Shown here: one piece after another, positions 3,729-55,280 of the stretch
Layout: every line of letters begins with the position of its first letter
Numbering within the stretch: position 1 is the stretch's first letter
NCBI GenBank assembly: GCA_031551875.1
Contig: JAVBNA010000020.1
Location: 2,167-66,166, forward strand
DNA length: 64,000 nt
Source: Oscillospiraceae bacterium
GTDB taxonomy: Bacteria; Bacillota; Clostridia; Oscillospirales; Acutalibacteraceae
Direction of reading: 5' to 3'
Program-made: the position numbers and the translations under genes
The notes under the pieces: model-generated
Databases searched by the model: none
Seen by the model: the letters and a program-made list of their open reading frames with translations, nothing else
Told to the model about the DNA's origin: nothing

Positions 3729-3737
3729 GTGATATTC

Positions 3738-4736
3738 TCACCCATTCCATGATTTCGGTACATACAATTCTTTAAATAGCGTGATGGCATACCGGTCGGT
3801 CATGCCCGCGATAAAATCGCACACCGCGCGCTCCAGCCCCTCCTGCCAGGTGATGGTCTGATATTCCAGGGGAAGCTCCATCGGGCAGGCGACGAAGTGG
3901 TTGTACAGCGCAGTGATCACGCCGGGCACCTTGCTTTCCTCTCCCTTGGCGACCGGGTTCAAATAGACCTGGTCAAACATAAAGCCGTGCAGCTCGGAAA
4001 ATGCCGTCTGCACTGCCTCGCCCATACAAAGCCTGTCCCCCTCGGTGTGCTCAATGATGGACATGACCAGTGTGTTGATGCGCTCGCTGCGGCGTCCGCC
4101 CAGCGTGTCGACAATATGACGAGGGATTGCGCTGTCCGAGAGGACACCTGCGCGGATCGCGTCGTCGATGTCGTGATTTATGTAGGCAATGCGGTCGGCC
4201 ACGCGCACAATGCGTCCTTCAAGGGTTTTGGCTTCCTCCCCTTTGGTGTGGCAGCGGATGCCGTCAATGACCTCCCAGGTCAGGTTGAGCCCTTTGCCGT
4301 TCCCCTCCAGTTTTTCCACTACGCGCACGCTCTGTTCATAGTGGACAAAGCCCAGCGCGGACACGTCGTCAAGCGCCCGCTCACCGGCGTGTCCGAAGGG
4401 GGTGTGCCCCAGGTCGTGCCCCAGTGATATCGCCTCAGTCAAGTCCTCGTTGAGACGCAGCGCCCGGGCAATCGTACGGGCAATCTGCGAAACCTCCAGC
4501 GTGTGGGTCAACCGCGTGCGGTAATGATCCTGTTCCGGACACAGGAAAACCTGCGTCTTGTGCTTGAGTCGCCGGAAGGATTTCGAGTGCAGAATCCGGT
4601 CGCGGTCGCGCTGAAACTCGGTGCGCACCTCGCACTTATCTTCTTCTCTCGCCCGTCCGCGGCTGCCCGCTGACAGCGCGGCATACTCCGAGAGCGTACT
4701 CCTCTCGAGCTGCTCGGTTCTCTCACGGATGGCCAT
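3738..4736 (-). CDS. dGTP triphosphohydrolase-like HD-domain protein
   Basis: HD motifs RLTHTLEVSQIAR and GHDLGHTPFGHAGE. Start moved to the ATG at 4736, which is preceded by GGAAGGGG; the ORF track extends to 4763. Confidence 0.85.
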   Translation of the reverse strand: MAIRERTEQLERSTLSEYAALSAGSRGRAREEDKCEVRTEFQRDRDRILHSKSFRRLKHKTQVFLCPEQDHYRTRLTHTLEVSQIARTIARALRLNEDLTEAISLGHDLGHTPFGHAGERALDDVSALGFVHYEQSVRVVEKLEGNGKGLNLTWEVIDGIRCHTKGEEAKTLEGRIVRVADRIAYINHDIDDAIRAGVLSDSAIPRHIVDTLGGRRSERINTLVMSIIEHTEGDRLCMGEAVQTAFSELHGFMFDQVYLNPVAKGEESKVPGVITALYNHFVACPMELPLEYQTITWQEGLERAVCDFIAGMTDRYAITLFKELYVPKSWNG

Positions 4737-41654: not shown

Positions 41655-44510
41655 TTATCGGATGACCGTCCCTGCCGAGGGCGGAATTATATTCTCCCCA
41701 CTGACCCGCTCCAAATATGCCTTTTTGTAAACCGGAAGCAAAGAAAAATCGCTGTCGCGCATATCAAAGCCACGGAAATCGGCGCTTTCCAGGTCAAAGC
41801 TGGGCGGGTAAATCAGCCCCTTGATGTCGGACGCGCCCGCAACGTGCTCAAAGCGCATGTTTTTGACCAGACTGAAATCGCTGTATGAAATGTCACGGCC
41901 GCGGAAGTCCGTGCGCTGCATGTTGAAGGTGTTGGGATAGACAATGCCGTTGATTTTCTGCGCGAGACGGATGTGCCCGAAGGTCAGCCCCGACACCTTG
42001 CTGAAATCGCTGTATGCGATGTTGCGTCCCGAATAGTCGGCGTTTTCAATGTCGAAAGACGCGGGATAAGCCAGGCCGTAAATCCGATAGGTGTTCATGA
42101 CGTGCTGCCAGCGAAAGCTGCTGACCCGCGTGAAGTCGGAGAATGAAATATCGCGGTCAAAGAACTCCGCCCGCTCAATATTGAAATCGGAGGGATATTC
42201 AATGCCCCGAATCGACGCCGCCGTGCGCAGGTGCTTCCAGCGCAGATCCTCGACACGGGTGAAGTCGGAAAAGGAAATGTCCCGTCCCGAGAAATCGGCC
42301 CGTTCAATGTCAAAGTCGGCGGGGTATACGATGCCCTTGATTTTTTCCGCCGGCTGGAGGTGCTTCCAACGCAGGAAGCGCAACTGGCTGAAATCACTCT
42401 GAGAGATATCCCGGCCGGTAAAATCAGCGCGGTCAATGTTAAACTCGCGGGGGTAAATAATCCCTTTGAGGGAATTCGAGCGCTTGATCTGCCGCCATTT
42501 GAGGAAAGGAACCAAGCTGAAATCGGAGAAGGAGATATCCTTGCCCATAAAGTCGGCGTTTTCCATATCAAATTCCGCCGGGTACTTGACCCCGACGATG
42601 TTTTCGGCAAAGCGGATGTGTTCCCAGCGCAGGTATTTGTCCTTGCTAAAATCCATATAGGCGAGGTAACGCCCGTCATACCGCTCATGCTCGCGAATCT
42701 TGCGCAGCGTTTCACTGTCCGCGATCGTACGCATGGCCGGCGCAGTCTGTACCGCTCCTGAGGTGTCGCCCGTCTGGGGCAGCATCGGCGGCATCATGCC
42801 CGGCGACATGTGATACATCATCATGCCGCCGTTCGGACTCATCACCACATACATGGGCACCGGCACCCCCGTCGGCATCATGCCCGCCTGCAGGCCGAGC
42901 GGCTGTATGCCCTGCATTCCGGGGAAACCCTGCATCTGCACAAAGCTCTGCATTTGCGGCGGTACCATCACTGGCTGTCCGCCCGGGAAAGCGCCGTTCA
43001 TCAGCTGCTGCTGATAAGCCGCCCACATCTGGGCGAGCTTGGTTCCCATATCCTCAGCCGCACTCCCCGCTCCTCCGTCGGCAAACGGCGACTGTTCGGG
43101 CTGGCTGCGCGTGGTTTTTTTAGGACGCTGGGGTTCGGGTTGGGGCTGTTTGGGCGCGGCTTTTTCGGTCACCGCGCGCTCGGACTCCTTCCGATTCAGG
43201 ATGGTCACCTGATAGGACGTGTCGGGCTGCACCGCTTCACTGCCGTGACTGCGCACAGTGTTGGAGACACGATCTGACGGGTTAATCCTGAGCGGCTCAG
43301 GGTTTTCCTTGGTTCCCGTGCGCATGCCAGCAGCTCCTGACGATTGTCCGGCGGTGGCGCGCGACGGCGGTTTGCGGGTTCGGGCAGCGGAAGAACCGTT
43401 TAGCGGGATATTCTTCCAGGTCAGCTCAGCTTCTTTGTGCTCCGCGGGCTGTCTGTCCTCCTCCCCCTTGTCCGACTGTGCAAACTCAGCCCGGTAAGGG
43501 TTGGATCTTTTCTTTTCCTCTTTGGGCTTTTCCTTGTCAAAGGCCGCGCGCAGCTGTTCTTTGTATCGATTGATCCGGTCGGCGTAGCTGCCGCCGCTCG
43601 GCTCTTCATAGGGCTGTTCAAATTCGGCTTCCGGTTCAGGCTCGTACTCGTCCTGCTCCTCCGGCTCTGACACGGCCTCTTCCTCCGTCACCGGCAGCTC
43701 CTCGTCCAAGTCGGACAATGCGGCCTCTTCGGCAGACACTTCCCTGGAAATATACTCCTCTTCCTGGGAAGGAACCTCCTCCGCCGGCGCGAAGAGAATC
43801 TCGAGCGGAGCGGGCTCCGCAGCGGGATGCGCCTGCACAATGATCTGCGGGTCGGTCGGCAGCGTGACTGGCGGCACGGCCGGAGATAGGGGCAGAACGG
43901 GAGGCACCTCCGTATATTCAGGCGCCCAGCCGGGCGCTGTTCGTTCGGGGATAATCACCTCGTATGGCGGGCTGGTTTGCGTCTGAGCCTGTCCGTTTGG
44001 ATAGGGCGACGCATAGCTCGGCCGGTAGACGGGCGGAGCGGGACGCACCGGCGCGGAATAGGCGGGGGGCGTCGGATAGGGCGACGCCGCTGGCGCGCCG
44101 TTGTTGTAATAGGGCGGCCGTATCACCGGTTCAGGCGTCAAATACGGAGTGACCGGCCGCTGGGGCGCAGAACGTACATTTCCGTTATAGTAGGGCAAAT
44201 CAGGCTGGGGCTGAAATCCATCGCGGTAGGGCAGGTTTGCCTTTTGCGGGCTCTGCGGTCGGATCGCAGGCGGCTGTGCAGGACGGACATAGGCGGGCTG
44301 GCTCTCCCGCGCAAACACACCTTTGTTGACCGTAAACCCGGTAAGCTGCTTGCTGACCGCGTTGCCGCACTCCGCGCACACAATTGCGGTCGGCGAATTG
44401 GGCGCGCCGCAGTTGGCACACCGAACCGAATGATCCTGTTTAGCCTTCACAGGATCACCGCTTTGCAGTGAATCCAAAAAATTGTCAAAATCAGGCATTT
44501 GGCCTTTCAT
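41655..44510 (-). CDS. Large zinc-ribbon / proline-rich disordered / 43-aa-repeat (pentapeptide-like) protein
   Basis: 951 aa. N-terminal CANCGAPNSPTAIVCAECG, about 540 aa of Pro/Gln/Met-rich low complexity, and a C-terminal 7 x 43-aa repeat block. No TM segment seen. Confidence 0.7.
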   Translation of the reverse strand: MKGQMPDFDNFLDSLQSGDPVKAKQDHSVRCANCGAPNSPTAIVCAECGNAVSKQLTGFTVNKGVFARESQPAYVRPAQPPAIRPQSPQKANLPYRDGFQPQPDLPYYNGNVRSAPQRPVTPYLTPEPVIRPPYYNNGAPAASPYPTPPAYSAPVRPAPPVYRPSYASPYPNGQAQTQTSPPYEVIIPERTAPGWAPEYTEVPPVLPLSPAVPPVTLPTDPQIIVQAHPAAEPAPLEILFAPAEEVPSQEEEYISREVSAEEAALSDLDEELPVTEEEAVSEPEEQDEYEPEPEAEFEQPYEEPSGGSYADRINRYKEQLRAAFDKEKPKEEKKRSNPYRAEFAQSDKGEEDRQPAEHKEAELTWKNIPLNGSSAARTRKPPSRATAGQSSGAAGMRTGTKENPEPLRINPSDRVSNTVRSHGSEAVQPDTSYQVTILNRKESERAVTEKAAPKQPQPEPQRPKKTTRSQPEQSPFADGGAGSAAEDMGTKLAQMWAAYQQQLMNGAFPGGQPVMVPPQMQSFVQMQGFPGMQGIQPLGLQAGMMPTGVPVPMYVVMSPNGGMMMYHMSPGMMPPMLPQTGDTSGAVQTAPAMRTIADSETLRKIREHERYDGRYLAYMDFSKDKYLRWEHIRFAENIVGVKYPAEFDMENADFMGKDISFSDFSLVPFLKWRQIKRSNSLKGIIYPREFNIDRADFTGRDISQSDFSQLRFLRWKHLQPAEKIKGIVYPADFDIERADFSGRDISFSDFTRVEDLRWKHLRTAASIRGIEYPSDFNIERAEFFDRDISFSDFTRVSSFRWQHVMNTYRIYGLAYPASFDIENADYSGRNIAYSDFSKVSGLTFGHIRLAQKINGIVYPNTFNMQRTDFRGRDISYSDFSLVKNMRFEHVAGASDIKGLIYPPSFDLESADFRGFDMRDSDFSLLPVYKKAYLERVSGENIIPPSAGTVIR
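41745..42647 (-). repeat. Seven tandem 129-bp coding repeats (43 aa each)
   Basis: The anchor residue triplet SDF recurs with an exact 43-residue period. Consensus S.V..LRW.H.....I.GI.YP..F.IE.ADF.GRDIS.SDF. Confidence 0.85.
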
Positions 44511-44671: not shown

Positions 44672-45445
44672 TCAGTGCAGGCCTTCAAAATCCGAGGCAA
44701 AAAAATTGTATTTATACGGACTGTCGGGATGTTTTCGGATGATACAAATCATTTCCCCGACGCCGTCATAGGTTTCGCCGTCCTCCATCAAATCCCCCGC
44801 CCGTCCGACACATTTTATGAATCCGTTTCCCAGATCCTGCACATAGTCGACCTCGGCCTTGACCGCCATATAAAAGGAGCCGTCCCATTTGTAATAGTCG
44901 CCGTCGTAATATATCGTTTCCATGTTGTCAGGGTTATCCTCCGCATATTGCTGCGGCTGTTCGATGCGTTTGCCAAAATAGCCGTAGATCATGTCCTCAA
45001 AGGTCTTAGCGGACACACCCAGCCGTCCGTCGGGGAATGTCTTAGTCTTTTTTTCCCTGATGCTCATGTTTATGCCGCAGTTGAGCAGGACTTCGTCGTC
45101 AATCTCTGTATATTCAAATTGCCCGAATACAGCCATGCTGCTTGTCAGATAGGCTTCAATTTCCGCAATCTCAGCCTCGGTCAGCTTTAAATATTTGCCC
45201 TTTTGACTGGTCTTGGGCACCTCCGCGTCCACCGGGATGCCCGACGTGATGTTCGATACCTCCGAGGACGGAACACTTTCGGGAACGACCACTTCGGATG
45301 CTACCGATTCCGTGACGCTTGTCACCGTTGAAGTAACGCTCTCCCTCTCACTGGTAACAGGGGCGGTCGGCTTTGCGGATGTACAGCCCCACAAAAGGCA
45401 GAGGCTCATAAAAAGGGCCAGAATCCCTGACATTTTTTTCTTCAT
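44672..45445 (-). CDS. Hypothetical lipoprotein
   Basis: Signal peptide plus lipobox MKKKMSGILALFMSLCLLWGC, followed by a Ser/Thr/Val-rich linker. Start at the ATG at 45445 after AAGGAGA. Confidence 0.6.
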   Translation of the reverse strand: MKKKMSGILALFMSLCLLWGCTSAKPTAPVTSERESVTSTVTSVTESVASEVVVPESVPSSEVSNITSGIPVDAEVPKTSQKGKYLKLTEAEIAEIEAYLTSSMAVFGQFEYTEIDDEVLLNCGINMSIREKKTKTFPDGRLGVSAKTFEDMIYGYFGKRIEQPQQYAEDNPDNMETIYYDGDYYKWDGSFYMAVKAEVDYVQDLGNGFIKCVGRAGDLMEDGETYDGVGEMICIIRKHPDSPYKYNFFASDFEGLH

Positions 45446-45710
45446 GGTTGTCTCCTTCCGGACGTTCATCATAAAAGCTTTCAATTCTATATATTATAAA
45501 CCATTTTATGTGGATACACAACCATTTTGTCCCAAATTCTGATTGATTACAAGCTTTCGTCGCCCCACAGTAATTTTTTCCTTTCTTGAAACAAAAGTTT
45601 ACAAAAAAGTCCAGATTCGTTTAAATCTGGTTTTCAAAACTTGGTTGCGCATTGTACAGGTTTGTGTTAGAATATGTAGGATATTATGAGTGAAGAGGTG
45701 ACTTCTTTCG

Positions 45711-46253
45711 ATGAGCAGTCCCAATGAACGGATCCAGGCCTGGGTGCAGGACATCTCCGCCTACTCACACGTGGAGTGGAACCGGATGCCGGAAATTGAC
45801 CTGTACATGGATCAGGTTATTACATACATGGACAAGCAGCTCAGCGTGTTCCGGCGCAGCGACGAGGCCAAGGCGCTGACGCCCAGCATGATTAACAACT
45901 ATGTCAAGGATGAGCTTCTGAAAAATCCCGTGCGAAAAAAATACTCGCGTGAGCATCTCGCGGCGCTGCATATGATCTGCCTGCTCAAGCAGGTGCTCTC
46001 CATCCCCGATGTGTCCGACCTGTTAAAGCTTCTTGGCGAACATAAATCCATGGAGGAACTGTATGAATCTTTTTCCTCCATTCAGAAAACCGCCTTTGCC
46101 GACGTCGCACAACGCGTCGCCGCCATGGACGACCACCGTGAGCATTTAGTGGCTCTCGCACTTGAGCTTTCCATTGAAGCCGGCGCCCGCCGGACTATGG
46201 TGGAAAAAATTCTCAGTGAAATGTCGCGGGGCGAGACCGAAGAAAAGGAATAG
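45711..46253 (+). CDS. DUF1836-domain protein
   Basis: 180 aa with YMDQVI.YM...L..MINNYVK..L...P.KKKYS.EHLA.L..I..LK signature. Confidence 0.65.
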   Translation: MSSPNERIQAWVQDISAYSHVEWNRMPEIDLYMDQVITYMDKQLSVFRRSDEAKALTPSMINNYVKDELLKNPVRKKYSREHLAALHMICLLKQVLSIPDVSDLLKLLGEHKSMEELYESFSSIQKTAFADVAQRVAAMDDHREHLVALALELSIEAGARRTMVEKILSEMSRGETEEKE

Positions 46254-46290
46254 TCTTAACGTCCCACACCTGAACATAAGGAGAATGAAC

Positions 46291-47655
46291 ATGAAAATCT
46301 GCAGCCAATGCGGCTACTGCAACGGAGATTACATGGACGCCTGCGCCCGTTGCCGCGCCCCTCTGAATGGCGCCCCGATCCCGAACGGTGCTTCTGCGCC
46401 GCAGGCCGGTTCCGGTTATGGAGCGCCCGCCGCGCTCCCGCCCGGCTATACCCCCAGGCCGAGCTATCCGCCTCAGGGACAGTCCTGCTATGCCCAGACG
46501 CCGACGCCCGCGCCGAGAGGCTTGGGCGCGCCCGCTTCTGTTCCCTACGGACAGACCGGCATGCCGCAGGCACAAAACCGCTTTGGACAAGCGCCGCAGG
46601 GTTTAAGCCCGTATGCGCCGCCGCCCGCGGCTCAGCAGGTCACCCGTCCGCAGCCAGGCGCGTACCCCCTGTCTCCCCCGCAGTACAGCCAGAATGTCCG
46701 CCCGCAGCCTCCACAGCCGCAGCGACCCCCACAGCCCCGCCCTCCGGAACAGCCGAGCGAATACACTTCGCTTTTGGGAAACGAGAATCTAAATTCGTTA
46801 AATGATTTTTCCGTGCAGCCCGCCAAGCGTTCCTCAGCCGGTCTGGTCATTATCATTCTGCTGATCCTGCTTGTGCTGACCGGCGGCGTCACTTGGTATT
46901 TCTATACAAATGAGCTCTTTCCCGCCGAGGTGCGCAGCTCGATCGACAGCGTGATCAGCAGCGTGACCGGCTTTTTAGGCGTCAACAACGACTCTCCCGA
47001 CCAGACCGGCAATGAGCAGTTTGACATCATGGTTTCCCGTGTGCGCAACACGGCCGGCACCGACGACGAGCAGGCCAAGACAATCGTGAACACCCTGATC
47101 CAGAAGTGCGGCGCAACCGGCATCAGCAGCATACTGCCCATCGGCGAAACAGCCTTGTATCAAATCAAGTCGCCCGGGGGCTTTTTCAAGATCCATATTG
47201 ACCCGAACACGAAGGTGCTGACCCGGGTGGAAACCGACGAATCCATCCCCCGCGCGATCTATGCGGACGGCACCTCCTTCGCCAGTGTTTCCGATTTCTG
47301 CATTCCGGAAGAAATTATGGAAAAGCTCAAGGAGAATGCCCGCGCCACCCTGAAAGGAGCGGTGTCCAATCCTGAGCTGATTACCTTTGAAGAAAACGAC
47401 GGCTGGGATTTCCACAAGGACAAGGACTGGATTGCCGTGTACTGCACAGCCATCTCCGAAGCCGAGGGGACGACCGAAAACCGCATCCCCTTCTATTTTG
47501 AATACCAGCTGCAAGGCAACACCTATACCCTCCTGTTTGCCCGCATCGGTGACAAGACCGACGGCACACAGCACTTTACCGAGGGTGCGCAGAACAGCCC
47601 CTATACCGACGATTCCGCCCAGCCGGATGAAACCGCCGGCCAGCCCACGGCGTGA
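46291..47655 (+). CDS. Zinc-ribbon / Pro-Gln-rich / single-TM protein with an extracytoplasmic domain
   Basis: MKICSQCGYCNGDYMDACARC, a P/Q-rich tract, TM segment GLVIIILLILLVLTGGVTWYFY, and a ~230-aa C-terminal domain. Start at the ATG at 46291 after AAGGAGA. Confidence 0.6.
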   Translation: MKICSQCGYCNGDYMDACARCRAPLNGAPIPNGASAPQAGSGYGAPAALPPGYTPRPSYPPQGQSCYAQTPTPAPRGLGAPASVPYGQTGMPQAQNRFGQAPQGLSPYAPPPAAQQVTRPQPGAYPLSPPQYSQNVRPQPPQPQRPPQPRPPEQPSEYTSLLGNENLNSLNDFSVQPAKRSSAGLVIIILLILLVLTGGVTWYFYTNELFPAEVRSSIDSVISSVTGFLGVNNDSPDQTGNEQFDIMVSRVRNTAGTDDEQAKTIVNTLIQKCGATGISSILPIGETALYQIKSPGGFFKIHIDPNTKVLTRVETDESIPRAIYADGTSFASVSDFCIPEEIMEKLKENARATLKGAVSNPELITFEENDGWDFHKDKDWIAVYCTAISEAEGTTENRIPFYFEYQLQGNTYTLLFARIGDKTDGTQHFTEGAQNSPYTDDSAQPDETAGQPTA

Positions 47656-47752: not shown

Positions 47753-47764
47753 AATACAAACGAC

Positions 47765-47901
47765 GCCCTTTAAGTAAGTCCTGTGAGGCTTGCAAGGCGA
47801 TCCAATATGAAGCCCGGCGCGCGTTTCCCCCGCAGGGGGAGATGCACCCGGATTTGGTATACGGATACGGCTTGTCCTCATGGAGGATGAGCCGTTTTTT
47901 T
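47765..47901 (+). promoter_or_regulatory. PyrR-binding leader with transcription attenuator
   Basis: AGUCCUGUGAGGCUUGCAAGG (47777-47797) resembles the PyrR binding-loop consensus (UCCAGAGAGGCU). GC hairpin TCCCCCgcaGGGGGA. Terminator CGGCTtgtCCTC-atg-GAGGatgAGCCG plus T7 (47868-47901), just upstream of pyrR. Confidence 0.7.
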
Positions 47902-47927
47902 GATTATAAAAGCAGGGAGGGATACCG

Positions 47928-48470
47928 GTGGCGGAAAAGGCACAGATTATGGATGAAAAGGGCGTGGGCCGTGCGATGGCGCGTATCTCCTATGAGATCA
48001 TCGAGCGCAACCGCGGCCTTGAGGATGTGTGTGTCGTGGGCATTCTGCGGCGCGGGGCGGTAATGGCCGGCCGGTTGGCGGGCAAGTTGCGCGAATTGGA
48101 GGGCAAGGAGATGCCCTGCGGACATCTCGACATCTCCCGTTTCCGGGACGACCGTCCGGGCGAGCCGGCCGCCGAGGACAAATCCGAGCTTCCCTTTCAG
48201 GTTGCGGGCAAGGTGGTCATTCTGGTTGACGACGTGCTGTACACCGGACGCAGCGTGCGGGCGGCGATTGACGCGCTCATCCAGCGCGGGCGCCCCAAAG
48301 CCATACAGCTTGCCGTGCTGGTCGACCGGGGACATCGGGAACTGCCCATCCGTCCTGACTACGTGGGGAAGAACCTGCCCACCTCAAGCGACGAGCGGGT
48401 CGCTGTTCTGTTCAGTGAGACCGACGGAGAAGATGCCGTGCGCATCTACGGAACGGAGGAAATTTCATGA
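47928..48470 (+). CDS. pyrR: Bifunctional pyrimidine operon regulator / uracil phosphoribosyltransferase PyrR
   Basis: 180 aa. VILVDDVLYTGRSVRAAIDAL PRPP motif. GTG start after AGGGAGGG. Confidence 0.95.
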   Translation: MAEKAQIMDEKGVGRAMARISYEIIERNRGLEDVCVVGILRRGAVMAGRLAGKLRELEGKEMPCGHLDISRFRDDRPGEPAAEDKSELPFQVAGKVVILVDDVLYTGRSVRAAIDALIQRGRPKAIQLAVLVDRGHRELPIRPDYVGKNLPTSSDERVAVLFSETDGEDAVRIYGTEEIS

Positions 48471-49735
48471 AGCTTCTCCTGCAAAACATCAGGCGCTTTG
48501 ACACGGGCGAACAAGCTGACATCCTGCTTGCGGAGGGAAAAATTGCGGATATTGCCTCCCACATCCCCGTCGGAGAGGGTATGACGTGTCTCGACGGCGG
48601 GGGCCTGACCGCTGCGCCCGGACTTGTGGATATGCATGTCCACCTGCGCGACCCCGGACAGACGCACAAGGAAGATTTGACCTCCGCGTCACGGGCGGCG
48701 GCGGCGGGCGGCGTGACCAGCCTGCTGGCCATGCCCAACACCTGCCCCACCGTGGATACCCCCGGCATCCTTCGGAACATTCTGGCAAGGGCACAGGCCA
48801 TGCCGGTGCGCATGTATCAGGCGGCGGCGATCACCAAAGGGCTTCGCAGCGAAGAGCCCTCCGACTGGGCTGCGCTCAAAGCGGCAGGCGCGGCGGCGCT
48901 GTCCGACGACGGGCGTCCTGTCGTTGATACGCGCATCATGGCGCGGGCGCTGTGCGAAGCGGCGGCGCTTTCACTTCCGGTGGTGTCCCACTGTGAGGAT
49001 CTCTATCTTGCCAAGGGTGGGCTGATGCACGAGGGGCAAGTGTCGGCAGCGCTCGGCGTGCCGGGCATCCCGGCGGCGGCCGAGGACGCAGGCACGGCGC
49101 GTGACATTGCGCTTGCGGCGGCCTACGGCGTGCCGGTGCACATCTGCCACGTCAGCACAGCCACCTCGGCGGCGCTCATCCGTGACGCAAAACGCAGGGG
49201 TGTCCCGGTCACCGCCGAAACCGCCCCCCACTACCTGCTGCTGACCGAGGAGAGCTTGCGCGGACGGGATGCCGATTACCGCATGAACCCGCCTCTGCGC
49301 ACCGCGGCCGACCGCGAGGCGCTTCTTTTGGCGCTGTGCGACGGCACGATTGACTGCATCGCCACCGACCACGCTCCCCACGCCCCGGACGAAAAGAGCG
49401 ATTTTGAAAGCGCCCCTTTCGGCGCGGTCGGCATGGAAACCTCCTTTGCCGCCGCGTATACGGCACTGGTGGCGAGCGGCAGACTGTCCTGCGCCGGGCT
49501 GATCAGTCTGATGGCAACGAACCCCGCGCGTATTTTAGGTTTTCAGGCAGGCTTGCTGGAGAAGGGCGAAAACGCCGACCTGATGCTGTTTGACCCGCAG
49601 GAAACATGGGTTGTGGATCCCGAAAAGCTGCACGGCAAGTCGCGCAACACCCCCTTTAAACAGATGACGCTGACCGGCAGGGTCAAGGTGACCCTGTGCC
49701 GCGGCGAGATCATTTTTGACGACAGAAAGGAGTAG
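48467..49735 (+). CDS. pyrC: Dihydroorotase
   Basis: 422 aa. DMHVHLRDPG, ATDHAPH and CPTVDT-type motifs. 4-nt overlap with pyrR. Confidence 0.9.
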   Translation: MKLLLQNIRRFDTGEQADILLAEGKIADIASHIPVGEGMTCLDGGGLTAAPGLVDMHVHLRDPGQTHKEDLTSASRAAAAGGVTSLLAMPNTCPTVDTPGILRNILARAQAMPVRMYQAAAITKGLRSEEPSDWAALKAAGAAALSDDGRPVVDTRIMARALCEAAALSLPVVSHCEDLYLAKGGLMHEGQVSAALGVPGIPAAAEDAGTARDIALAAAYGVPVHICHVSTATSAALIRDAKRRGVPVTAETAPHYLLLTEESLRGRDADYRMNPPLRTAADREALLLALCDGTIDCIATDHAPHAPDEKSDFESAPFGAVGMETSFAAAYTALVASGRLSCAGLISLMATNPARILGFQAGLLEKGENADLMLFDPQETWVVDPEKLHGKSRNTPFKQMTLTGRVKVTLCRGEIIFDDRKE

Positions 49736-49741
49736 AACAAT

Positions 49742-50674
49742 ATGTCTCTTGACCGGCTGATCCGCGCGATTGCGGACAAACAAAATCCCACTGTGGCGGG
49801 GCTCGACCCCAAGCTGAGCTTCATTCCCGAATCCATCAGGCAGAACGCCTACGACAAATACGGAAAAACGCTTGAGGGCGCGGCGGACGCGATCCTGACC
49901 TACAACAAGGGGCTGATTGATGCCCTGTACGACATTGTGCCGGCAGTCAAGCCGCAGTGCGCCTACTACGAAATGTACGGCTGGCCGGGCATGCGCACCC
50001 TCTATGAAACCATCAAATACGCCAAGGAAAAGGGTTTATACGTGATCACCGACGGCAAGCGCAACGACATCGGCTCGACCATGGAGGCCTATGCGGCCGC
50101 CCATCTGGGCAGCACCGACGTCGACGGCGCGCACTTCCTGCCCTTTGACGGCGACGCACTGACCGTTAACGGTTATCTTGGCTCGGACGGCATCAAGCCG
50201 CTCGTGAGCACCTGCCAATCCTTTGATACCGGCCTGTTTGTGCTGGTCAAAACCTCCAACCCCTCCTCGGGGGAGCTGCAGGATTTAAAATTTGAGGACG
50301 GCCGCACACTGTATGCCGCGATGGGCGCGCTGTGTGAAAGCTGGGGCGAAGCCCTGCCGGGCAAGTTCGGCTACTCGGGCGTGGGCGCGGTGATCGGCGC
50401 GACCTATCCCCGGATGCTCGGCGAGATGCGCGAAGCGCTGCCCCATACCTTTTTCCTGGTGCCGGGCTACGGCGCACAGGGCGGCGGCGCGCAGGACGTG
50501 CTGCCCGCCTTTGACAAAAACGGCTCAGGTGCCGTGATCAACTCCTCCCGCGCGATTCTGCGCGCCTGGCAGAAGGAGGGCGCGGCGGAGGAGGAGTACG
50601 CCGACGCGGCGCGGCGTGAGGCGCTGCGTATGAGAGAGGAACTGCGCAAGGACATCGGGGAGATCAAGCTGTAG
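49742..50674 (+). CDS. pyrF: Orotidine-5'-phosphate decarboxylase, long (type 2) form
   Basis: 310 aa. VAGLDP, DGKRNDIGST and PGYGAQGG motifs. Confidence 0.9.
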   Translation: MSLDRLIRAIADKQNPTVAGLDPKLSFIPESIRQNAYDKYGKTLEGAADAILTYNKGLIDALYDIVPAVKPQCAYYEMYGWPGMRTLYETIKYAKEKGLYVITDGKRNDIGSTMEAYAAAHLGSTDVDGAHFLPFDGDALTVNGYLGSDGIKPLVSTCQSFDTGLFVLVKTSNPSSGELQDLKFEDGRTLYAAMGALCESWGEALPGKFGYSGVGAVIGATYPRMLGEMREALPHTFFLVPGYGAQGGGAQDVLPAFDKNGSGAVINSSRAILRAWQKEGAAEEEYADAARREALRMREELRKDIGEIKL

Positions 50675-50691: not shown

Positions 50692-51786
50692 ATGGAATCA
50701 AAGAAAGTAACGACCGCCTATCTCGTGCTGGAGGACGGCACGGTGTACGAGGGCTTCTCGGTGGGCGCTGTCAAAAAGGCGGTCGGTGAGGTGGTTTTTA
50801 ACACGACCGTGTCCTATCAGGACATTTTGTCTGACCCGACCTATTCGGGCCAGATCGTCATACAGACCTACCCACTGATCGGCAACCGAGGCGTTGACCC
50901 CCAGTCGGTAACCAATCTGGTGGCGAGCGGCTATGTGGTGCGCGAATGGTGTGTGGAGCCCACCGACGCCAATGAGTTTGTCACCCTCGACCAGTACCTT
51001 GAGAGCATCGGCGTGACCGGCCTGTGCGGCATTGACACCCGCTCGCTCACCCGCCGTATCCGCAAGAACGGCGTGATGAACGGCGCGATTGTCGGCTCGC
51101 TTGACGGAAAAGAAGCTCTCCTGGAAGAGCTCAGGACCTACCGTGTGCCCCCGGCCGTGGGACAGGTTTCGGTCAGGGAGAGAGTGCGCCTGGAAACGCC
51201 CGGCGCGAAATTTGAGCTCGCCGTACCCGACTACGGTTTCCGCCGCGACATTCTGGCGCATTTCCAGGAGCGCGGCTGTAACATCACGCTTTACCCCGCC
51301 TATACCAAAAGTGAAGAGCTCCTCGCCGGAAACCCCGACGGGATTTTCCTGTCCGACGGGCCGGGCGACCCGTGGGACAACCCCGAGATCATCGCGATCA
51401 TCCGAGAGCTGACCGCCTCGAAAAAGCCGGTGTTTGCCGTCGGACTGGGGCATCAGCTTCTGGCGGTCGCCATGGGCATGATCATCGAAAAGCTCTCCGT
51501 GGGACACCGCGGCGCCAATCAGCCCGTGCGCAGGCTGGACGATGGGCGGGTGCTGATTACCAATCAAAATCACGGCTATACGGTGGCCAGAAATACAGTA
51601 TCTGAACAGATTGCCTCTGTCACCCATGAGAATGTCAACGATCTTTCCGTGGAAGGGCTCTCCTATAAAGCCTTCCCATCAGTGAGCGTACAGTTTGAAC
51701 CGGGTGACGGCCCGGGCTATCAGGACACCGCCTACCTGTTCGACGAGTTTATACGCATGATGGAAAGGAGCAAGAACAATGCCTAA
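50692..51786 (+). CDS. carA: Carbamoyl-phosphate synthase small subunit homolog with a substituted glutaminase triad
   Basis: 364 aa. CPSase small-chain N-domain (LVLEDGTVYEGFSVGA, TYPLIGNRG) and a GATase-fold C-domain (SDGPGDP, NQNHGY). The nucleophile motif reads VFAVGLGHQ and the HPE motif reads FEPG. Confidence 0.85.
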   Translation: MESKKVTTAYLVLEDGTVYEGFSVGAVKKAVGEVVFNTTVSYQDILSDPTYSGQIVIQTYPLIGNRGVDPQSVTNLVASGYVVREWCVEPTDANEFVTLDQYLESIGVTGLCGIDTRSLTRRIRKNGVMNGAIVGSLDGKEALLEELRTYRVPPAVGQVSVRERVRLETPGAKFELAVPDYGFRRDILAHFQERGCNITLYPAYTKSEELLAGNPDGIFLSDGPGDPWDNPEIIAIIRELTASKKPVFAVGLGHQLLAVAMGMIIEKLSVGHRGANQPVRRLDDGRVLITNQNHGYTVARNTVSEQIASVTHENVNDLSVEGLSYKAFPSVSVQFEPGDGPGYQDTAYLFDEFIRMMERSKNNA

Positions 51787-54700
51787 GAGAAGCGACATCA
51801 AGAAAGTGCTGGTTATCGGCTCCGGTCCCATCGTGATCGGGCAGGCCGCGGAGTTTGACTACGCGGGTACACAGGCCTGCCGCGCCCTCAAGGAGGAGGG
51901 CATGGAGGTTGTGCTGGTCAACTCCAACCCGGCCACCATCATGACCGACAAGGTGATGGCCGACCAGATTTACATTGAACCCCTGCGGCTCGACGTGGTC
52001 AAGCGCATCATTGAGCTGGAGCGTCCCGACAGCGTGCTGGCGACGCTGGGCGGCCAGACCGGCCTCAACCTCGGCATGGAGCTGGCGGCGGACGGCATTC
52101 TCGAGCGTCTCCATGTCAAACTCCTGGGCGCGAACCCCGAAACCATACGCAAGGCGGAGGATCGCCAGGCATTTAAAGATACCATGGCCGAGTGCGGCGA
52201 GCCCTGCATCGCCTCCAAGGTGGTGGAAACCATTGAGGATGCGGTCGACTACGCGGAAACGCTGGGCTATCCCGTGGTGGTGCGCCCCGCCTACACGCTG
52301 GGCGGTACGGGCGGCGGCTTTGCGAACAACACGGGCGAGCTGCGCGAAATCTGCGAAACCGGGCTGCGCGCCTCCATGATCCACCAGTGCCTGATCGAAA
52401 AGGGCATCGCAGGGTGGAAGGAAATTGAGTTTGAGACCGTGCGCGATTGTGCGGGCAACTGCATCACCGTCTGCTCGATGGAAAACATTGACCCGGTCGG
52501 CGTACACACGGGCGACTCGATCGTCGTCGCCCCGGCGCAGACGCTGACCGCGCCCGAGCTTGCCATGATGCGCTCGGCAGCGCTCAACATCGTCACGGCG
52601 CTGGGTGTCGAGGGTGGCTGTAACGTGCAGTTTGCCCTGAAGCCCAACAGCATGGAATACGCCGTGATTGAGGTCAACCCCCGCCTGTCCCGTTCGTCGG
52701 CGCTGGCGTCCAAGGCGACCGGCTACCCCATCGCCAAGGTCGCAACCAAGATTGCGATTGGCTACTGCCTTGATGAGATTGTCAACGCGGTGACCAAAAG
52801 CACCTACGCCTGCAATGAGCCGGCGGTTGACTACTGCGTGCTCAAGTTCCCGAAATGGCCCTTCGACAAGTTTGTTTATGCCAACCGCACGATTGGAACC
52901 CAGATGAAAGCGACCGGCGAGGTCATGTCCATCGGCACAAGCTTTGAGCTGGCTCTGATGAAGGCGGTGCGCTCGATCGAGCTCGGGCTGGACACCTTCA
53001 ACCTGCCGAAATTGACCGAGCTTTCGGCGGAGGAACTACTCGCGCTTATCCCCCAAACCGACGATGAGCGTATCTTCGTGGTCTATCAGGCGCTCAAAAA
53101 GGGCATTACCGCCGACACGATCTACGACATCACCAAGATCGACCGCTGGTTCCTCTCAAAGCTGAAAAAGCTGTCCACGATGGAGCATGAGCTTGCGTCG
53201 GGGGACTTGACAGCGACCAAATATATGCAGGCCAAGCACCTGGGCTTCCTCGACAAAACCATTGAAGCGATCTCAGGGCAGAAGCCGCCGCTCAGCATAA
53301 ATGCCTCCTACAAGATGGTGGATACCTGCGCGGGCGAATTTGACGCCGAAACACCCTATTTCTACTCCACCTGGGACGAGGAGAATGAGGCGAAGCTCTA
53401 CATCGAAGAGCGCCCCACCGACAAAAAAACCATCCTCGTGTTCGGTTCCGGCCCCATCCGCATCGGACAGGGTATCGAGTTTGACTACTGCTCGGTGCAT
53501 TGTGTGAGCACGCTCAAAAAGTTGGGCTATGAGGCGATCATCGCCAACAACAACCCCGAGACGGTCTCCACCGACTTTGACACCTCCGACCGCCTTTATT
53601 TCGACCCGCTGACCCCCGAGGACGTGCGGTCGGTCATCGCGACCGAGAAGCCGTGGGGCTGTGTGGTGCAGTTCGGCGGGCAGACCGCCATCAAGCTCAC
53701 GAAGCACCTGGGCGAGCTGGGCGTCCCGATTCTTGGCACCTCGGCCGACGGTGTGGACGCCGCCGAGGACCGTGAGCGTTTTGACGCGCTGGTGGAGGAA
53801 CTGGGCATCCCCCGTCCGGCGGGACAGACGGTGTACACGGAGGACGAGGCTGTCAGGGCGGCGAACGAGCTGGGCTATCCCGTGCTCATGCGCCCCTCCT
53901 ACGTGCTGGGCGGGCAGAACATGATCATCGCCTACGGGGAACCGGACATCCGTGAATACATGAAAATCATCACGGCGACCGCGCTTGAGAACCCTGTGCT
54001 CATTGACAAATATATGATAGGGCGCGAGGTCGAGGTGGACGCCATCTGCGACGGGGAGGATTTCCTGATTCCCGGCATCATGGAGCATATTGAGCGGGCG
54101 GGCATCCACTCGGGCGACTCCATCTCGGTTTATCCGACCCAGACCATCTGGCAGCAGCACAAGGATACCATCGTCGACTACACCGCCCGCTTTGCCAAGG
54201 CGCTGGGCGTGGTGGGACTGGTCAACATCCAGTATGTGATCCACAAGGATCAGGTCTACGTGATTGAGGTCAACCCGCGCTCCTCCCGCACTGTGCCCTA
54301 CATCAGCAAGGTGACCGGCATCCCGATGGTCGACCTCGCGACCAAATGCATGCTGGGCATGAAGCTGCGCGATCTGGGCTACGGCACCGGCCTTTATCCT
54401 GAGTCCAACTATGTCAGCGTCAAGGTGCCTGTTTTCTCCTTTGAGAAGCTGCACGACCTTGATGTGGCGCTCGGTCCCGAAATGAAGTCCACCGGCGAGG
54501 TGCTGGGCATCGCGCACGACTTCCGCGACGCGCTGCTCAAGGGTCTGACCGCCGCCGGACAGACGCTCAAAAAGACCGGCGGCGTGCTGGTCACGGTGCG
54601 CGACACCGACAAGGAAGAAACCCTTATGCTGGCGCGGCGCTTTGCGGATCTGGGCTTCACCCTGTACGCCACGCAAGGCACAACCGAGTACTTTCGGAAA

Positions 54701-54970
54701 AACGGCCTGGAGACCGAGCCGGTCAGAAAGCTCAGCGAGCCCTCCCCCAACATCGCCGACCTGTTCGAGCAAGGCAAGGTGGACTACGTCATCTCCACCT
54801 CGACCAAGGGCAGGATCCCCGCCTATGACAGCGTCAAGTTGCGCCGCCGCGCGGTGGAGCATGCCATCCCCTGCCTGACCGCGCTGGACACTGCCGCGGC
54901 CGTGCTGTCCTGCCTCGAGATGCACAAGGGCATGGAGGACGTCGAGCTTGTGGACATCACGAAGATGTAG
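51779..54970 (+). CDS. carB: Carbamoyl-phosphate synthase large subunit
   Basis: 1063 aa. Duplicated ATP-grasp halves (VLVIGSGPIVIGQAAEFDYAGTQA and ILVFGSGPIRIGQGIEFDYC) and an MGS-like C-terminal domain. 8-nt overlap with carA. Confidence 0.97.
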   Translation: MPKRSDIKKVLVIGSGPIVIGQAAEFDYAGTQACRALKEEGMEVVLVNSNPATIMTDKVMADQIYIEPLRLDVVKRIIELERPDSVLATLGGQTGLNLGMELAADGILERLHVKLLGANPETIRKAEDRQAFKDTMAECGEPCIASKVVETIEDAVDYAETLGYPVVVRPAYTLGGTGGGFANNTGELREICETGLRASMIHQCLIEKGIAGWKEIEFETVRDCAGNCITVCSMENIDPVGVHTGDSIVVAPAQTLTAPELAMMRSAALNIVTALGVEGGCNVQFALKPNSMEYAVIEVNPRLSRSSALASKATGYPIAKVATKIAIGYCLDEIVNAVTKSTYACNEPAVDYCVLKFPKWPFDKFVYANRTIGTQMKATGEVMSIGTSFELALMKAVRSIELGLDTFNLPKLTELSAEELLALIPQTDDERIFVVYQALKKGITADTIYDITKIDRWFLSKLKKLSTMEHELASGDLTATKYMQAKHLGFLDKTIEAISGQKPPLSINASYKMVDTCAGEFDAETPYFYSTWDEENEAKLYIEERPTDKKTILVFGSGPIRIGQGIEFDYCSVHCVSTLKKLGYEAIIANNNPETVSTDFDTSDRLYFDPLTPEDVRSVIATEKPWGCVVQFGGQTAIKLTKHLGELGVPILGTSADGVDAAEDRERFDALVEELGIPRPAGQTVYTEDEAVRAANELGYPVLMRPSYVLGGQNMIIAYGEPDIREYMKIITATALENPVLIDKYMIGREVEVDAICDGEDFLIPGIMEHIERAGIHSGDSISVYPTQTIWQQHKDTIVDYTARFAKALGVVGLVNIQYVIHKDQVYVIEVNPRSSRTVPYISKVTGIPMVDLATKCMLGMKLRDLGYGTGLYPESNYVSVKVPVFSFEKLHDLDVALGPEMKSTGEVLGIAHDFRDALLKGLTAAGQTLKKTGGVLVTVRDTDKEETLMLARRFADLGFTLYATQGTTEYFRKNGLETEPVRKLSEPSPNIADLFEQGKVDYVISTSTKGRIPAYDSVKLRRRAVEHAIPCLTALDTAAAVLSCLEMHKGMEDVELVDITKM

Positions 54971-54971
54971 C

Positions 54972-55280
54972 ATGAGACTTTTTGACAAATGGTTCGAAAA
55001 AAAACAACCGGCTCCGGCTGCAGCGGAGCCGGTCATCTTCGAACCCACTCTTTCAGAAGATGCATTGTGCACACTGTTTTCAAGAGATAAAAAAGCTTAT
55101 GGAGAAGTGTGGAGGCGTAAGGACGGTACATATACATATTCTTTCCATAAGTTTACATATGATGACTACACCTACACGTACTACTGGGCACCGTGGGATC
55201 CGAATGGATATGCGGTGACGATCTACGACACGTCCGAAAAGGCAATCCGAGACGTGGAGGAGATATTGTCAACAGTCTGA
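54972..55280 (+). CDS. Hypothetical small protein
   Basis: 102-aa ORF starting 2 nt after the carB stop. Tyr/Thr-rich core (YTYSFHKFTYDDYTYTYYWAPWDPNGY). No family recognised. Confidence 0.4.
   Translation: MRLFDKWFEKKQPAPAAAEPVIFEPTLSEDALCTLFSRDKKAYGEVWRRKDGTYTYSFHKFTYDDYTYTYYWAPWDPNGYAVTIYDTSEKAIRDVEEILSTV

Follow-up and report, generated by a model that had tools for sequence, protein, structure and literature searches.

The window analyzed here, a 64-kb (64,000-nucleotide) stretch of DNA from an Oscillospiraceae bacterium, contained a PyrR-controlled operon with the gene order pyrR-pyrC-pyrF-carA-carB. The carA gene of this operon, referred to below as carA' (and its product as CarA'), coded for a homolog of the carbamoyl phosphate synthase (CPS) small subunit. 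The features of the operon were as follows.

47763..47902, + strand: attenuator-type leader preceding the operon, with PyrR binding, a terminator hairpin, and a U-run (Rfam RF00515)
47928..48470, + strand: pyrR, PyrR regulator/uracil phosphoribosyltransferase family (PF00156, PF14681; upstream of pyrC in related loci)
48467..49735, + strand: pyrC, dihydroorotase (PF01979, PF12890; syntenic in most related loci)
49742..50674, + strand: pyrF, OMP decarboxylase (PF00215; syntenic)
50692..51786, + strand: carA', CPSase small-subunit homolog without the Cys-His-Glu triad, 364 aa (domains, E. coli CarA alignment, model, dN/dS)
51779..54970, + strand: carB, CPSase large subunit, 1063 aa, catalytic residues intact (1025 bits to E. 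coli CarB 1bxr_A)

The leader was seen only in a permissive Rfam scan, where the match to the full-length RF00515 model scored 49.4 bits, below the gathering score of 54 (E = 4e-6 for the region); at gathering thresholds, Rfam gave no match anywhere in the 64-kb window. In four relatives with a canonical CarA (L080, L086, L087, and L089), the core of the locus was likewise pyrC-pyrF-carA-carB, preceded by pyrR if the contig was long enough, and carA' was the positional ortholog of the canonical pyrimidine carA. When tblastn searches were run with E. coli CarA and with the CarA and CarB of the window, one carA/carB locus only was recovered within the 64-kb window. The window annotation listed only housekeeping genes near the operon, and no nitrogen-metabolism genes. 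A canonical CarA from an arginine operon (P0103), which was used as a query to look for canonical CarAs of Fimenecus or Avimonas, was from Anaerovoracaceae and was uninformative.

The family assignment of CarA' was clear. Residues 11-133 matched PF00988 (CPSase_sm_chain; 136.4 bits, E = 6e-40), residues 178-355 matched PF00117 (class I glutamine amidotransferase; 117 bits), and the NCBIfam models NF009475 (369.6 bits) and TIGR01368 (344.3 bits) were both matched above their cut-offs. For the catalytic triad, the reference was a gap-free HMMER alignment of CarA' with the E. coli CarA structures 1bxr_B, 1c30_B, and 1t36_B, of which 1c30 is the C269S form of the E. coli enzyme. In the nucleophile region, PVFAVGLGHQLLA of CarA' was aligned on PVFGICLGHQLLA of E. 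coli, and Gly251 stood in the place of Cys269. In the H-P-E region, VSVQFEPGDGPG was aligned on FSFQGHPEASPG, and His353 and Glu355 were replaced by Glu336 and Gly338, respectively. Two additional pocket positions, Ser47 and Asn240, were also substituted. The codons concerned were as follows.

50839..50841, + strand: Thr50 codon ACC at the E. coli Ser47 position, a fixed Ser-to-Thr change (codon read; clade alignment)
51355..51357, + strand: Asp222 codon GAC at the E. coli Asn240 position, beside the oxyanion-hole Gly241, a fixed Asn-to-Asp change (clade alignment)
51442..51444, + strand: Gly251 codon GGA, for nucleophile Cys269 (direct read, alignment; Gly in 179/179 clade members)
51697..51699, + strand: Glu336 codon GAA, for triad His353 (direct read, alignment)
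51703..51705, + strand: Gly338 codon GGT, for triad Glu355 (direct read, alignment)

Thus, the cysteine of the G-x-C-x-G-x-Q elbow, the His and Glu of the H-P-E motif, Ser47, and Asn240 were all five absent from CarA'. Of the 68 CarA representatives that contained the cysteine, 65 also had His353, and Glu355 was present in every one. An AlphaFold2 model of CarA' (pLDDT 85.9) superimposed on E. coli CarA (1cs0_B) with a TM-score of 0.88, the C269S structure was again among the structures that it matched, and no further cysteine was found close to the pocket of CarA'. A preliminary description of the locus, made from the DNA alone, had called CarA' a homolog that lacked the entire triad, and the E. 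coli alignment gave the same three replacements (Gly251, Glu336, and Gly338), with which the model agreed. The description had also listed three conserved flanking anchors. One of these, SDGPGDP, was a changed form of the canonical S-N-G-P-G-D-P, in which the Asp at position 240 (Asp222) was specific to the clade and fixed there. Its proposal that CarA' would be a pseudo-glutaminase was in line with the missing triad and with a pocket that held no other cysteine. The alignments and the model supported the prediction that CarA' is a non-catalytic small subunit.

Because the window came from a metagenome-assembled contig, errors of sequencing or assembly had to be considered at this point, as had a pseudogene. 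For none of the three replacements would one wrong base be enough, since the Gly251, Glu336, and Gly338 codons were each two base changes away from all of the corresponding Cys, His, or Glu codons. An identical protein was recovered in an independent run assembly, and Gly269 was present in 179/179 homologs of the clade and in 79/80 related genome loci. The open reading frame was complete, and in a comparison with an 85%-identical relative the dN/dS of carA' was 0.10 (N-terminal domain, 0.047; amidotransferase domain, 0.127). The values for the neighboring genes in this comparison were 0.07 for carB, 0.126 for pyrR, and 0.195 for pyrC; carA' was therefore constrained about as strongly as pyrR and more tightly than pyrC. 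Pairs of carA' genes within lineages had dN/dS values of 0.04-0.085. The codon changes, the independent recovery, and the conservation effectively ruled out an artefact or a pseudogene, and the earlier claim that the gene is intact and in frame held. By these measures of constraint, CarA' is functional and is not decaying.

The loss of the triad was not confined to this genome. A survey of relatives, which the preliminary description had proposed, revealed clade-wide fixation of the change from Cys269 to Gly, which was found in all 179 full-length clade members that were aligned, down to about 46% identity. The triad-less CarAs formed a monophyletic clade (100/100 and 200/200 bootstraps) in trees that were built with the triad columns excluded. 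Judged from these trees and alignments, the loss is old and is fixed across a deep clade. In a set of 185,579 species-representative genomes, peptide patterns specific to the clade hit 537 loci that encode a CarA, and of the best 80 of these loci, which were the ones examined, 79 lacked the cysteine. The sample titles of the 80 related loci were mostly gut, faecal, or caecal (chicken, human, and deer), with uncultured MAGs as the remainder, which fitted the ammonia-rich gut or rumen habitat that the preliminary description had suggested. CarA' lacked the catalytic residues, was under purifying selection, and was kept in at least 179 homologs, which is the pattern by which a pseudoenzyme is recognized. 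In the full-text literature that was searched, no description of a triad-less bacterial CarA was found.

The residues around the former active site were not simply lost. Position 47 was Ser in 15/15 canonical CarAs and Thr in 177/179 triad-less sequences, and position 240 was Asn in 15/15 canonical sequences and Asp in 97% of the triad-less ones; Asp or Glu was found at position 240 in 32/78 Cys-less representatives. At position 293, 95% of the clade members had a small residue, Ser. The pocket residues G241, P242, L270, H272, Q273, N311, H312, G313, Y314, Q351, F352, and P354 were invariant or nearly so. Position 355 was variable (S, K, N, A, T, and others), and position 353 was Thr, Ile, or Val in many members. 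The small-subunit tunnel positions Met36, Ser/Ala309, Gly359, and Pro360 were relaxed clade-wide, and the tunnel-side Asn311 was invariant. The relaxed positions argued against a strictly conserved passage out of the old pocket. Presumably these are the tunnel-lining residues, as judged in part from PMC8674909 and PMC4655335. As far as the residue patterns show, the pocket is rebuilt and conserved, and not eroded or merely inactivated.

A conserved pocket with new polar groups might also mean that glutamine is still hydrolyzed in a non-canonical manner, for instance with Thr50 as the nucleophile and Glu336 or Asp222 as the general base. The invariance of the glutamine-binding and oxyanion residues (G241, L270, Q273, N311, H312, G313, and Y314) would suit such a mechanism, as would the new polar or acidic groups that S47T, N240D, and, in this lineage, H353E bring to the pocket. 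However, position 355 varied freely and position 353 was often Thr, Ile, or Val, and the engineered E. coli C269G and C269S enzymes are reportedly glutaminase-dead. Class I amidotransferases are not known to work without a nucleophilic cysteine, and we regard hydrolysis of this kind as highly improbable.

The partner of CarA' was a normal CarB, as had been claimed before. All 28 of the checked residues (ATP, metal, and loop ligands and tunnel-gate residues) were identical in the window and E. coli CarBs. They included the ammonia gate C232/A251/A314, which has been described for CPS in PMC8674909. On the basis of these 28 residues, CarB is predicted to have two intact ATP-grasp sites. The carB ATG at 51779 overlapped the end of carA' by 8 nt (ATGCCTAA), with an AAGGAG motif upstream, in keeping with the coupling of the two genes noted in the preliminary description. 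Eleven CarB substitutions were specific to the lineages with an intact CarB (P88A, I167V, I181F, L198A, D258A, I272V, F348N, L352V, A386S, A588T, and I629V); they have no confident placement along the tunnel, and we treat them as leads only.

With an intact CarB, it is conceivable, as the preliminary description had allowed, that another donor supplies the nitrogen, either a canonical CarA encoded elsewhere that would displace CarA' or compete with it, or a different ammonia-producing enzyme that docks on the CarA'-CarB complex. The gut bacterium B. thetaiotaomicron has two synthases with different nitrogen sources (PMC8121099), which lends this idea some plausibility. On the other hand, carA' was located directly upstream of carB in every related locus for which downstream sequence was present, the two genes overlapped here, and a candidate donor gene was absent from the operon and from the 64-kb window. 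The strong selection on CarA', particularly on its N-terminal domain, fits a stable cognate partner. We consider it quite unlikely that CarB is fed by another donor.

The relatives with a triad-less CarA did not all have an intact CarB. In a large sister group that included Candidatus Fimenecus and Fimivicinus, CarB lacked ATP and metal ligands; the losses affected the glycine-rich loop, E299/N301, E761, and E841/N843/R845, and often the whole second ATP-grasp lid was missing. The carA' and carB genes of this group were nevertheless intact and under strong purifying selection (dN/dS 0.02-0.09), and many of the degenerate-CarB loci were still part of pyrC-pyrF-carA-carB operons. The T47/D240/G269 form of CarA' was conserved in these lineages despite the catalytically dead-looking CarB. 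Position 353 was Glu if CarB was intact (23/23 loci) and Thr, Ile, or Val if it was degenerate (47/47 loci), a correlation that is phylogenetically non-independent because it involves two intact-CarB lineages and one or few degenerate ones. Since the sister CarBs look catalytically dead, those lineages must own another source of carbamoyl phosphate, and since CarA' is conserved beside them, part of its conservation is not for carbamoyl phosphate synthesis. CarA' may have a role beyond the support of catalysis. Evidently, the clade tolerates or owns another carbamoyl phosphate source, and such a source might be present in this genome as well.

These sister lineages are a reason to consider that the CarA'-CarB pair of the window is mainly regulatory or scaffolding, or is becoming so. 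The triad would then have been lost because the copy in the pyrimidine operon had become redundant, and most carbamoyl phosphate would be made by a separate enzyme, for example by another CarAB of the canonical type, a carbamate kinase, or a catabolic transcarbamylase. Sisters such as Ca. Fimivicinus and Ca. Fimenecus do keep intact and constrained genes for degenerate CarBs while they must obtain carbamoyl phosphate elsewhere, and a carbamate kinase can replace CPS in vivo (PMC6022934). In the window, however, every catalytic and gate residue of CarB that was checked was kept, CarB was under very strong constraint, and the 64-kb window held no second carA or carB. In addition, the CarA and CarB trees agreed that the window group split off earlier than the degenerate group, and intact CarBs were also found in independent Cys-less lineages. 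A primarily regulatory or scaffolding pair is an unlikely explanation for the window.

The independent lineages just mentioned were represented by four other Cys-less CarAs (L090 to L093), which were encoded in full pyrimidine operons and adjoined fully intact CarBs. In the CarB tree, the partners of Cys-less CarAs were scattered over no fewer than four or five positions next to CarBs with canonical partners (199-200/200 support), and this tree ruled out a single origin of all Cys-less CarAs. The star-like CarA tree of distant representatives was left out as evidence on origins. From the CarB tree, we infer that pyrimidine-operon CarAs have lost the cysteine on at least four or five independent occasions. 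A Cys-less CarA is, by the same comparisons, recurrent across lineages and not a quirk of this genome.

The explanation that we favor, with a probability of roughly 0.6, is that CarA' is non-catalytic and is still assembled with a functional CarB, and that the holoenzyme would be the ammonia-using CPS of the pyrimidine operon in uncultured gut Oscillospirales. Such an enzyme would be the bacterial counterpart of animal CPS I, built from two subunits, and for the synthesis of carbamoyl phosphate it would consume bicarbonate and 2 ATP, with free ammonia in the place of glutamine. The residues kept in CarB and lost from CarA' suggest that free ammonia is probably the substrate. The formation of a CarA'-CarB complex, the use of ammonia as the physiological donor, and a role of the pocket in ammonia delivery are all inferred. 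The small subunit would be retained as a structural requirement of CarB and, perhaps, for a part in the uptake of ammonia. The former glutamine site would have been rebuilt by the changes Cys to Gly, Ser47 to Thr, Asn240 to Asp, and His353 to Glu, with most of the other pocket residues retained, and its acidic residues could catch NH4+/NH3 and hand it on to the large subunit.

What is known of the E. coli enzyme bears on this mechanism. The C269G and C269S variants of E. coli CarA reportedly lose glutamine-dependent activity and keep ammonia-dependent activity. The Km of E. coli CPS for ammonium is poor, so an efficient use of ammonia would need adaptations. Purified bacterial CarB alone was an ammonium-dependent synthase in the work of Trotta (1971), as it is cited in PMC8121099. 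Blocking or perforating the glutamine tunnel of E. coli CPS left its activity on external ammonia normal, and external ammonia seems to have no need of the old passage in E. coli (PMC4655335). More tentatively, and as a course of events that we hold to be possible rather than probable, pyrimidine-operon CPSs of anaerobic gut Firmicutes may have turned, on repeated and independent occasions, into CPS-I-like ammonia enzymes, in which the pocket is an ammonium-capture site (Gly269, Asp/Glu240, and Glu353). In hundreds of species of the window clade, dead but strongly conserved CarA'-CarB' pairs with a new, non-enzymatic function may then have followed.

A close parallel is mitochondrial CPS1 (EC 6.3.4.16), which kept its ancestral class I amidotransferase domain, had the nucleophilic Cys replaced, and does not hydrolyze glutamine, so that ammonia must come from the surroundings (PMC4655335). 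Like CPS1, CarA' appears to be a retained but inactive amidotransferase module, and the CarA' model matched the N-terminal moiety of CPS1 with a TM-score of 0.82. In contrast to the two separate genes in the PyrR-controlled pyrimidine operon of the window, CPS1 is one fused chain of 1500 residues that depends on N-acetylglutamate and serves the urea cycle. In CPS1, the Cys was changed to Ser and the rest of the triad is "incomplete" (PMC4655335), whereas in CarA' all three residues were replaced and the Cys was changed to Gly. Also, CPS1 has a tunnel-blocking Gln as the equivalent of E. coli Gly293 (PMC4655335), where the triad-less clade mostly had a small Ser. The window proteins resembled the canonical CarA-CarB (CPS II, EC 6.3.5.5; E. 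coli and B. subtilis PyrAA-PyrAB) in domains, gene order, coupling, fold, and CarB catalytic residues, and the operon type was that of the canonical relatives L080 and L086. They differed in that CarA' had no triad and in the replacement of Ser47 and Asn240.

CarA' was a natural counterpart of the engineered E. coli C269G (Rubino, Nyunoya and Lusty 1986), but unlike C269G and C269S its change was natural and ancient, was accompanied by further fixed substitutions, and was under selection. The orphan CarB2 of B. thetaiotaomicron (BT3866), which matters when ammonium is plentiful, has been proposed to be an ammonium-dependent CPS, by authors who state that every eubacterial CPS examined to date depends on glutamine (PMC8121099). 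The window enzyme would likewise be a gut-bacterial CPS that apparently bypasses glutamine, but CarB2 has no small subunit at all and the window keeps a disarmed one. The aspartate transcarbamoylase of Pseudomonas contains an inactive, dihydroorotase-like PyrC' subunit. It is a precedent for a dead paralog that is kept as a structural subunit in pyrimidine biosynthesis, although PyrC' is a different enzyme with a different fold and bears chiefly on those relatives that have a degenerate CarB.

Reviews class all bacterial CPSs as glutamine-dependent CPS II (PMC6022934), and according to the reviews that were searched, an ammonia-dependent bacterial CPS has not been shown so far. A disarmed small subunit beside an intact large subunit makes this question directly testable. 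The triad-less CarAs pass the TIGR01368 equivalog model, which is named "glutamine-hydrolyzing"; this name would be a systematic misannotation, by which metabolic models that draw on it would be affected. The relatives with a degenerate CarB may represent a new pseudoenzyme complex. If the ammonia-dependent reading is true, the origin of animal CPS I would have a convergent parallel in bacteria, and the pyrimidine synthesis of abundant gut anaerobes would be tied to luminal ammonia.

The carA' gene encoded a 364-residue protein whose PF00988 (residues 11 to 133) and PF00117 (residues 178 to 355) domains form the carbamoyl-phosphate synthetase (CPSase) small-subunit pair, and the protein passed both NCBIfam CarA models (NF009475 and TIGR01368). 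A HMMER alignment with E. coli CarA PDB chains was gap-free around both catalytic motifs, pairing VFAVGLGHQ with VFGICLGHQ and VQFEPG with FQGHPE. Therefore, the positions of Cys269, His353, and Glu355 (E. coli numbering) were occupied by Gly251, Glu336, and Gly338, respectively. Together with the codons, each of which would need two substitutions to encode Cys, His, or Glu, this alignment bore out the missing triad proposed in the preliminary description. SDGPGDP, which had been listed there as a conserved anchor, did not hold up as one; the canonical sequence is SNGPGDP and the Asp is a clade-specific change. When superimposed, an AlphaFold2 model of CarA' (pLDDT 85.9) gave TM values of 0.88 against E. 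coli CarA and 0.82 against the N-terminal moiety of human CPS1. Because the nucleophile is absent, and given the known behaviour of class I amidotransferases, we predict with high confidence that the glutaminase function of CarA' is gone. The operon and the codons of interest were as follows.

47763-47902, + strand: PyrR-binding leader/attenuator with terminator, upstream of pyrR (RF00515, 49.4 bits)
47928 (start), + strand: pyrR, first gene of the operon
48467 (start), + strand: pyrC, after pyrR
49742 (start), + strand: pyrF, between pyrC and carA'
50692-51786, + strand: carA'
51442-51444, + strand: Gly251 codon GGA, at the Cys269 position
51697-51699, + strand: Glu336 codon GAA, at the His353 position
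51703-51705, + strand: Gly338 codon GGT, at the Glu355 position
51779-54970, + strand: carB, last gene of pyrR-pyrC-pyrF-carA'-carB

The closest canonical CarAs (loci L080, L086, L087, and L089) were found in the same operon type, and carA' is therefore a positional ortholog of the canonical pyrimidine-specific carA. No further carA or carB was found in the 64-kb window, which elsewhere contained housekeeping genes such as rpoD, dnaG, relA, recJ, and leuB. The leader fell just short of the Rfam gathering score (54) and would therefore be overlooked in standard annotation. Just upstream of the operon were long putative ORFs of 951, 270, and 497 aa (41655-44510, - strand; 44672-45484, - strand; 46162-47655, + strand) that matched no Pfam family at E <= 1e-5. 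A 110-aa ORF with a TTG start (54948-55280, + strand) overlapped the final 23 nt of carB. In Avimonas-type relatives and in canonical loci (L085 and L086), pyrK-pyrD followed carB at the point where the window operon stopped; a VanW-family gene lay beyond its end on the opposite strand.

An assembly artefact or a pseudogene was rejected on the basis of independent recovery, a clade-wide Cys-to-Gly change, and low dN/dS. An identical CarA' protein was present on a contig assembled independently from run SRR23967709. About 105 of the best 120 protein clusters had the Cys-to-Gly change, which reached down to 45% identity, and the first canonical sequences among these clusters appeared at 49% identity. 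Two clade-specific peptide patterns matched 537 CarA-relative loci in 185,579 species-representative genomes, and among the best 80 of these, all but the canonical L080 had Gly at position 269 (79 loci). Thus, the survey of relatives suggested in the preliminary description found the same substitution, and its view of carA' as an intact gene was supported by the whole ORF and by a dN/dS of 0.10 relative to L082, an 85%-identical relative. In this comparison, in which a dS of about 1 makes the values rough, the N-terminal and amidotransferase domains of carA' had dN/dS values of 0.047 and 0.127, respectively, compared with 0.071 for carB, 0.087 for pyrF, 0.126 for pyrR, and 0.195 for pyrC; carA values were 0.04 to 0.085 in closer pairs within the clade. 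The ratio of amidotransferase to N-terminal domain identity was 0.83 in 179 triad-less CarAs versus 1.03 in 15 canonical CarAs, and the amidotransferase domain of triad-less CarAs is only mildly relaxed. Every sequence analysed derives from metagenomes; of the loci with a sample name, most pointed to MAGs from the gut, faeces, or caecum of chickens, humans, and deer, and the others were from uncultured MAGs. Named sources included Candidatus Avimonas, Fimenecus, Fimivicinus, Onthovicinus, 'Ruminococcaceae', and 'Oscillospiraceae', and the closest species representative was only 73% identical to the window CarA'.

The start codon of carB produced an 8-nt overlap with the end of carA', and CarB aligned with E. 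coli CarB at 1025 bits. When E. coli numbering was carried onto the alignment, all 28 checked positions were as in E. coli, in agreement with the proposed coupling of carA' to a normal carB. The roles of these residues, other than those of the gate, are what we take them to be from E. coli structures; the gate residues were taken from PMC8674909 and PMC4655335.

First ATP site: R129, R169, G175-G180 loop, E215, H243, Q285, E299, N301, R303, R306
Ammonia gate: C232, A251, A314
Second ATP site: R675, R715, G721, G722, E761, H788, Q829, E841, N843, R845, R848

Thus, the window synthetase looks fully competent. Eleven CarB substitutions (E. coli positions 88, 167, 181, 198, 258, 272, 348, 352, 386, 588, and 629; window CarB 88-619) were fixed in intact-CarB lineages that pair with a triad-less CarA, and five canonical-partner CarBs lacked them. 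Most are in the carboxyphosphate domain, which contacts the small subunit, and they may be co-adaptations.

The comparison of the 179 triad-less and 15 canonical CarAs pointed to a remodelled glutamine pocket. At four positions, both sets were conserved but with different residues: the triad-less CarAs had Thr in place of Ser47, Arg at position 63, Asp in place of Asn240, and Gly in place of Cys269. The His353 and Glu355 positions were variable in the triad-less set, as were the small-subunit tunnel residues Met36, position 309, Gly359, and Pro360. Residues Gly241, Pro242, Leu270, His272, Gln273, Asn311, His312, Gly313, Tyr314, Gln351, Phe352, and Pro354, which are glutamine-binding or oxyanion-hole residues in E. 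coli, were invariant or nearly so.

The most likely function of the holoenzyme would be ammonia-dependent carbamoyl-phosphate synthesis for pyrimidines, to which we assign a probability of roughly 60%. CarA' would likely be kept for structural support of CarB, and its new acidic residues, Asp222 and Glu336, might capture ammonium; the relaxation of several small-subunit tunnel residues runs counter to a strict pocket-to-tunnel route. The E. coli C269G and C269S mutants reportedly retain ammonia-dependent activity. Blocking or perforating the glutamine tunnel leaves the E. coli enzyme normally active on external ammonia, and CPS1 is a natural animal example of an ammonia-dependent synthase (PMC4655335). 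Bacterial CarB purified alone was ammonium dependent, as Trotta 1971 is quoted in PMC8121099. The window locus is homologous to the glutamine-hydrolysing CarA class, yet it lacks the features that define that class. It is predicted to work most like CPS I but lies outside that family, with separate subunits, another substitution pattern, a pyrimidine-operon context, and no sign of the N-acetylglutamate control that belongs to CPS I. Reviews and a recent gut-microbe study describe all bacterial CPSs as dependent on glutamine (PMC6022934, PMC8121099), and our literature search found no description of a triad-less bacterial CarA variant. The contig of L082, the closest relative, also encoded a 244-aa single-domain NAD synthase (3533-4267, PF02540) without a glutaminase domain; this is the ammonia-dependent NadE type, another biosynthetic step that bypasses glutamine in the lineage.

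A full HMMER search against 1.84 billion cluster representatives yielded 146 full-length proteins among the best 150 matches, a sample biased towards the query. Cys269 was present in 68 and absent in 78, which had Gly (62), Asp (8), Ser (3), Ala (2), Asn (2), or Phe (1) instead. The Cys-less proteins still kept His353 in 11 cases, Glu355 in 33, and Ser47 in 20, and Asn240 was replaced by Asp or Glu in 32 cases and by Gly in 21. Four Cys-less loci, all in full pyrimidine operons, had CarBs that were intact at all 28 checked positions (residues at 47/240/269/353/355 in brackets).

L090 4259-5365, Ruminococcus sp.: pyrC-pyrF-carA'-carB-pyrK-pyrD (SEGAV)
L091 8001-9107, GC 36%: pyrR-pyrB-pyrC-carA'-carB-pyrK-pyrD-pyrF-pyrE (SNGHG)
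L092 3290-4354: pyrR-pyrB-pyrC-carA'-carB-pyrK-pyrD (SNGHE)
L093 8001-9077, Oscillospiraceae MAG: pyrB-carA'-carB (SDGNE)

In a tree built from 958 ungapped CarB columns with 200 bootstraps, L090 grouped with the canonical-partner L080 (200/200), L093 grouped with the canonical-partner L088 (200/200), and the window group was separate on its own (200/200). L092 and L091 were deeper, past nodes with 199 to 200/200 support that held canonical partners. If carA and carB were inherited together, this scatter indicates that Cys269 was lost independently at least four or five times. The Ruminococcus sp. protein P0442 (GenBank MBE6826859.1, MBQ7003433.1) is annotated as 'glutamine-hydrolyzing carbamoyl-phosphate synthase small subunit', although the Cys, His, and Glu of the triad are all missing from P0296, the representative of its cluster (at least 90% identity), on which the residues were read. 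Since the window CarA' also passed the equivalog model, such misannotation is likely systematic.

With the triad and fixed-difference columns removed, the triad-less CarAs formed one clade (bootstrap 100/100 and 200/200) with the topology canonical | (A, (C, D)), in which A denotes the window group (Candidatus Avimonas included), C consists of L024 plus L027, and D is all other triad-less CarAs (C+D support, 200/200). The CarB tree was congruent if rooted on L080; the trees were built by neighbour joining from simple distances and had few canonical outgroups. CarB was intact in groups A and C and degenerate in all D lineages (950 to 1055 residues; L026, L028, L031, L033, L034, and L037-L079; e.g., L037 7064-10012 and L083 11079-14048). 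In D, the glycine-rich loop of the first ATP-grasp domain was destroyed, a deletion of about 60 residues (window CarB 683-742) removed the lid of the second, and E761, E841, N843, and R845 were replaced; E299 and N301 were replaced in most, with E299 kept by Fimivicinus-type and a few other CarBs. Where the locus contained a complete CarB, the residue at the His353 position was Glu with an intact CarB (23/23) and Thr, Ile, or Val with a degenerate one (47/47), a split that is phylogenetically structured, though it covers two deep intact-CarB lineages.

The degenerate carB ORFs were intact in dozens of species, with a dN/dS of 0.02 to 0.07. Many D-lineage pairs were still downstream of pyrC-pyrF; the neighbours of the Fimenecus pair were instead a penicillin-binding-protein gene and ruvX rather than pyr genes. 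Fimenecus-type contigs also carried a glutamate dehydrogenase gene about 6 kb upstream of the pair (L083 3037-4377 and L084 2098-3438). CarA' was conserved even with a degenerate CarB, and part of its role therefore cannot be catalytic support. The CarA'-CarB' pair in Ca. Fimivicinus, Ca. Fimenecus, and other such lineages looks catalytically dead, and the D lineages indicate another source of carbamoyl phosphate in the wider clade.
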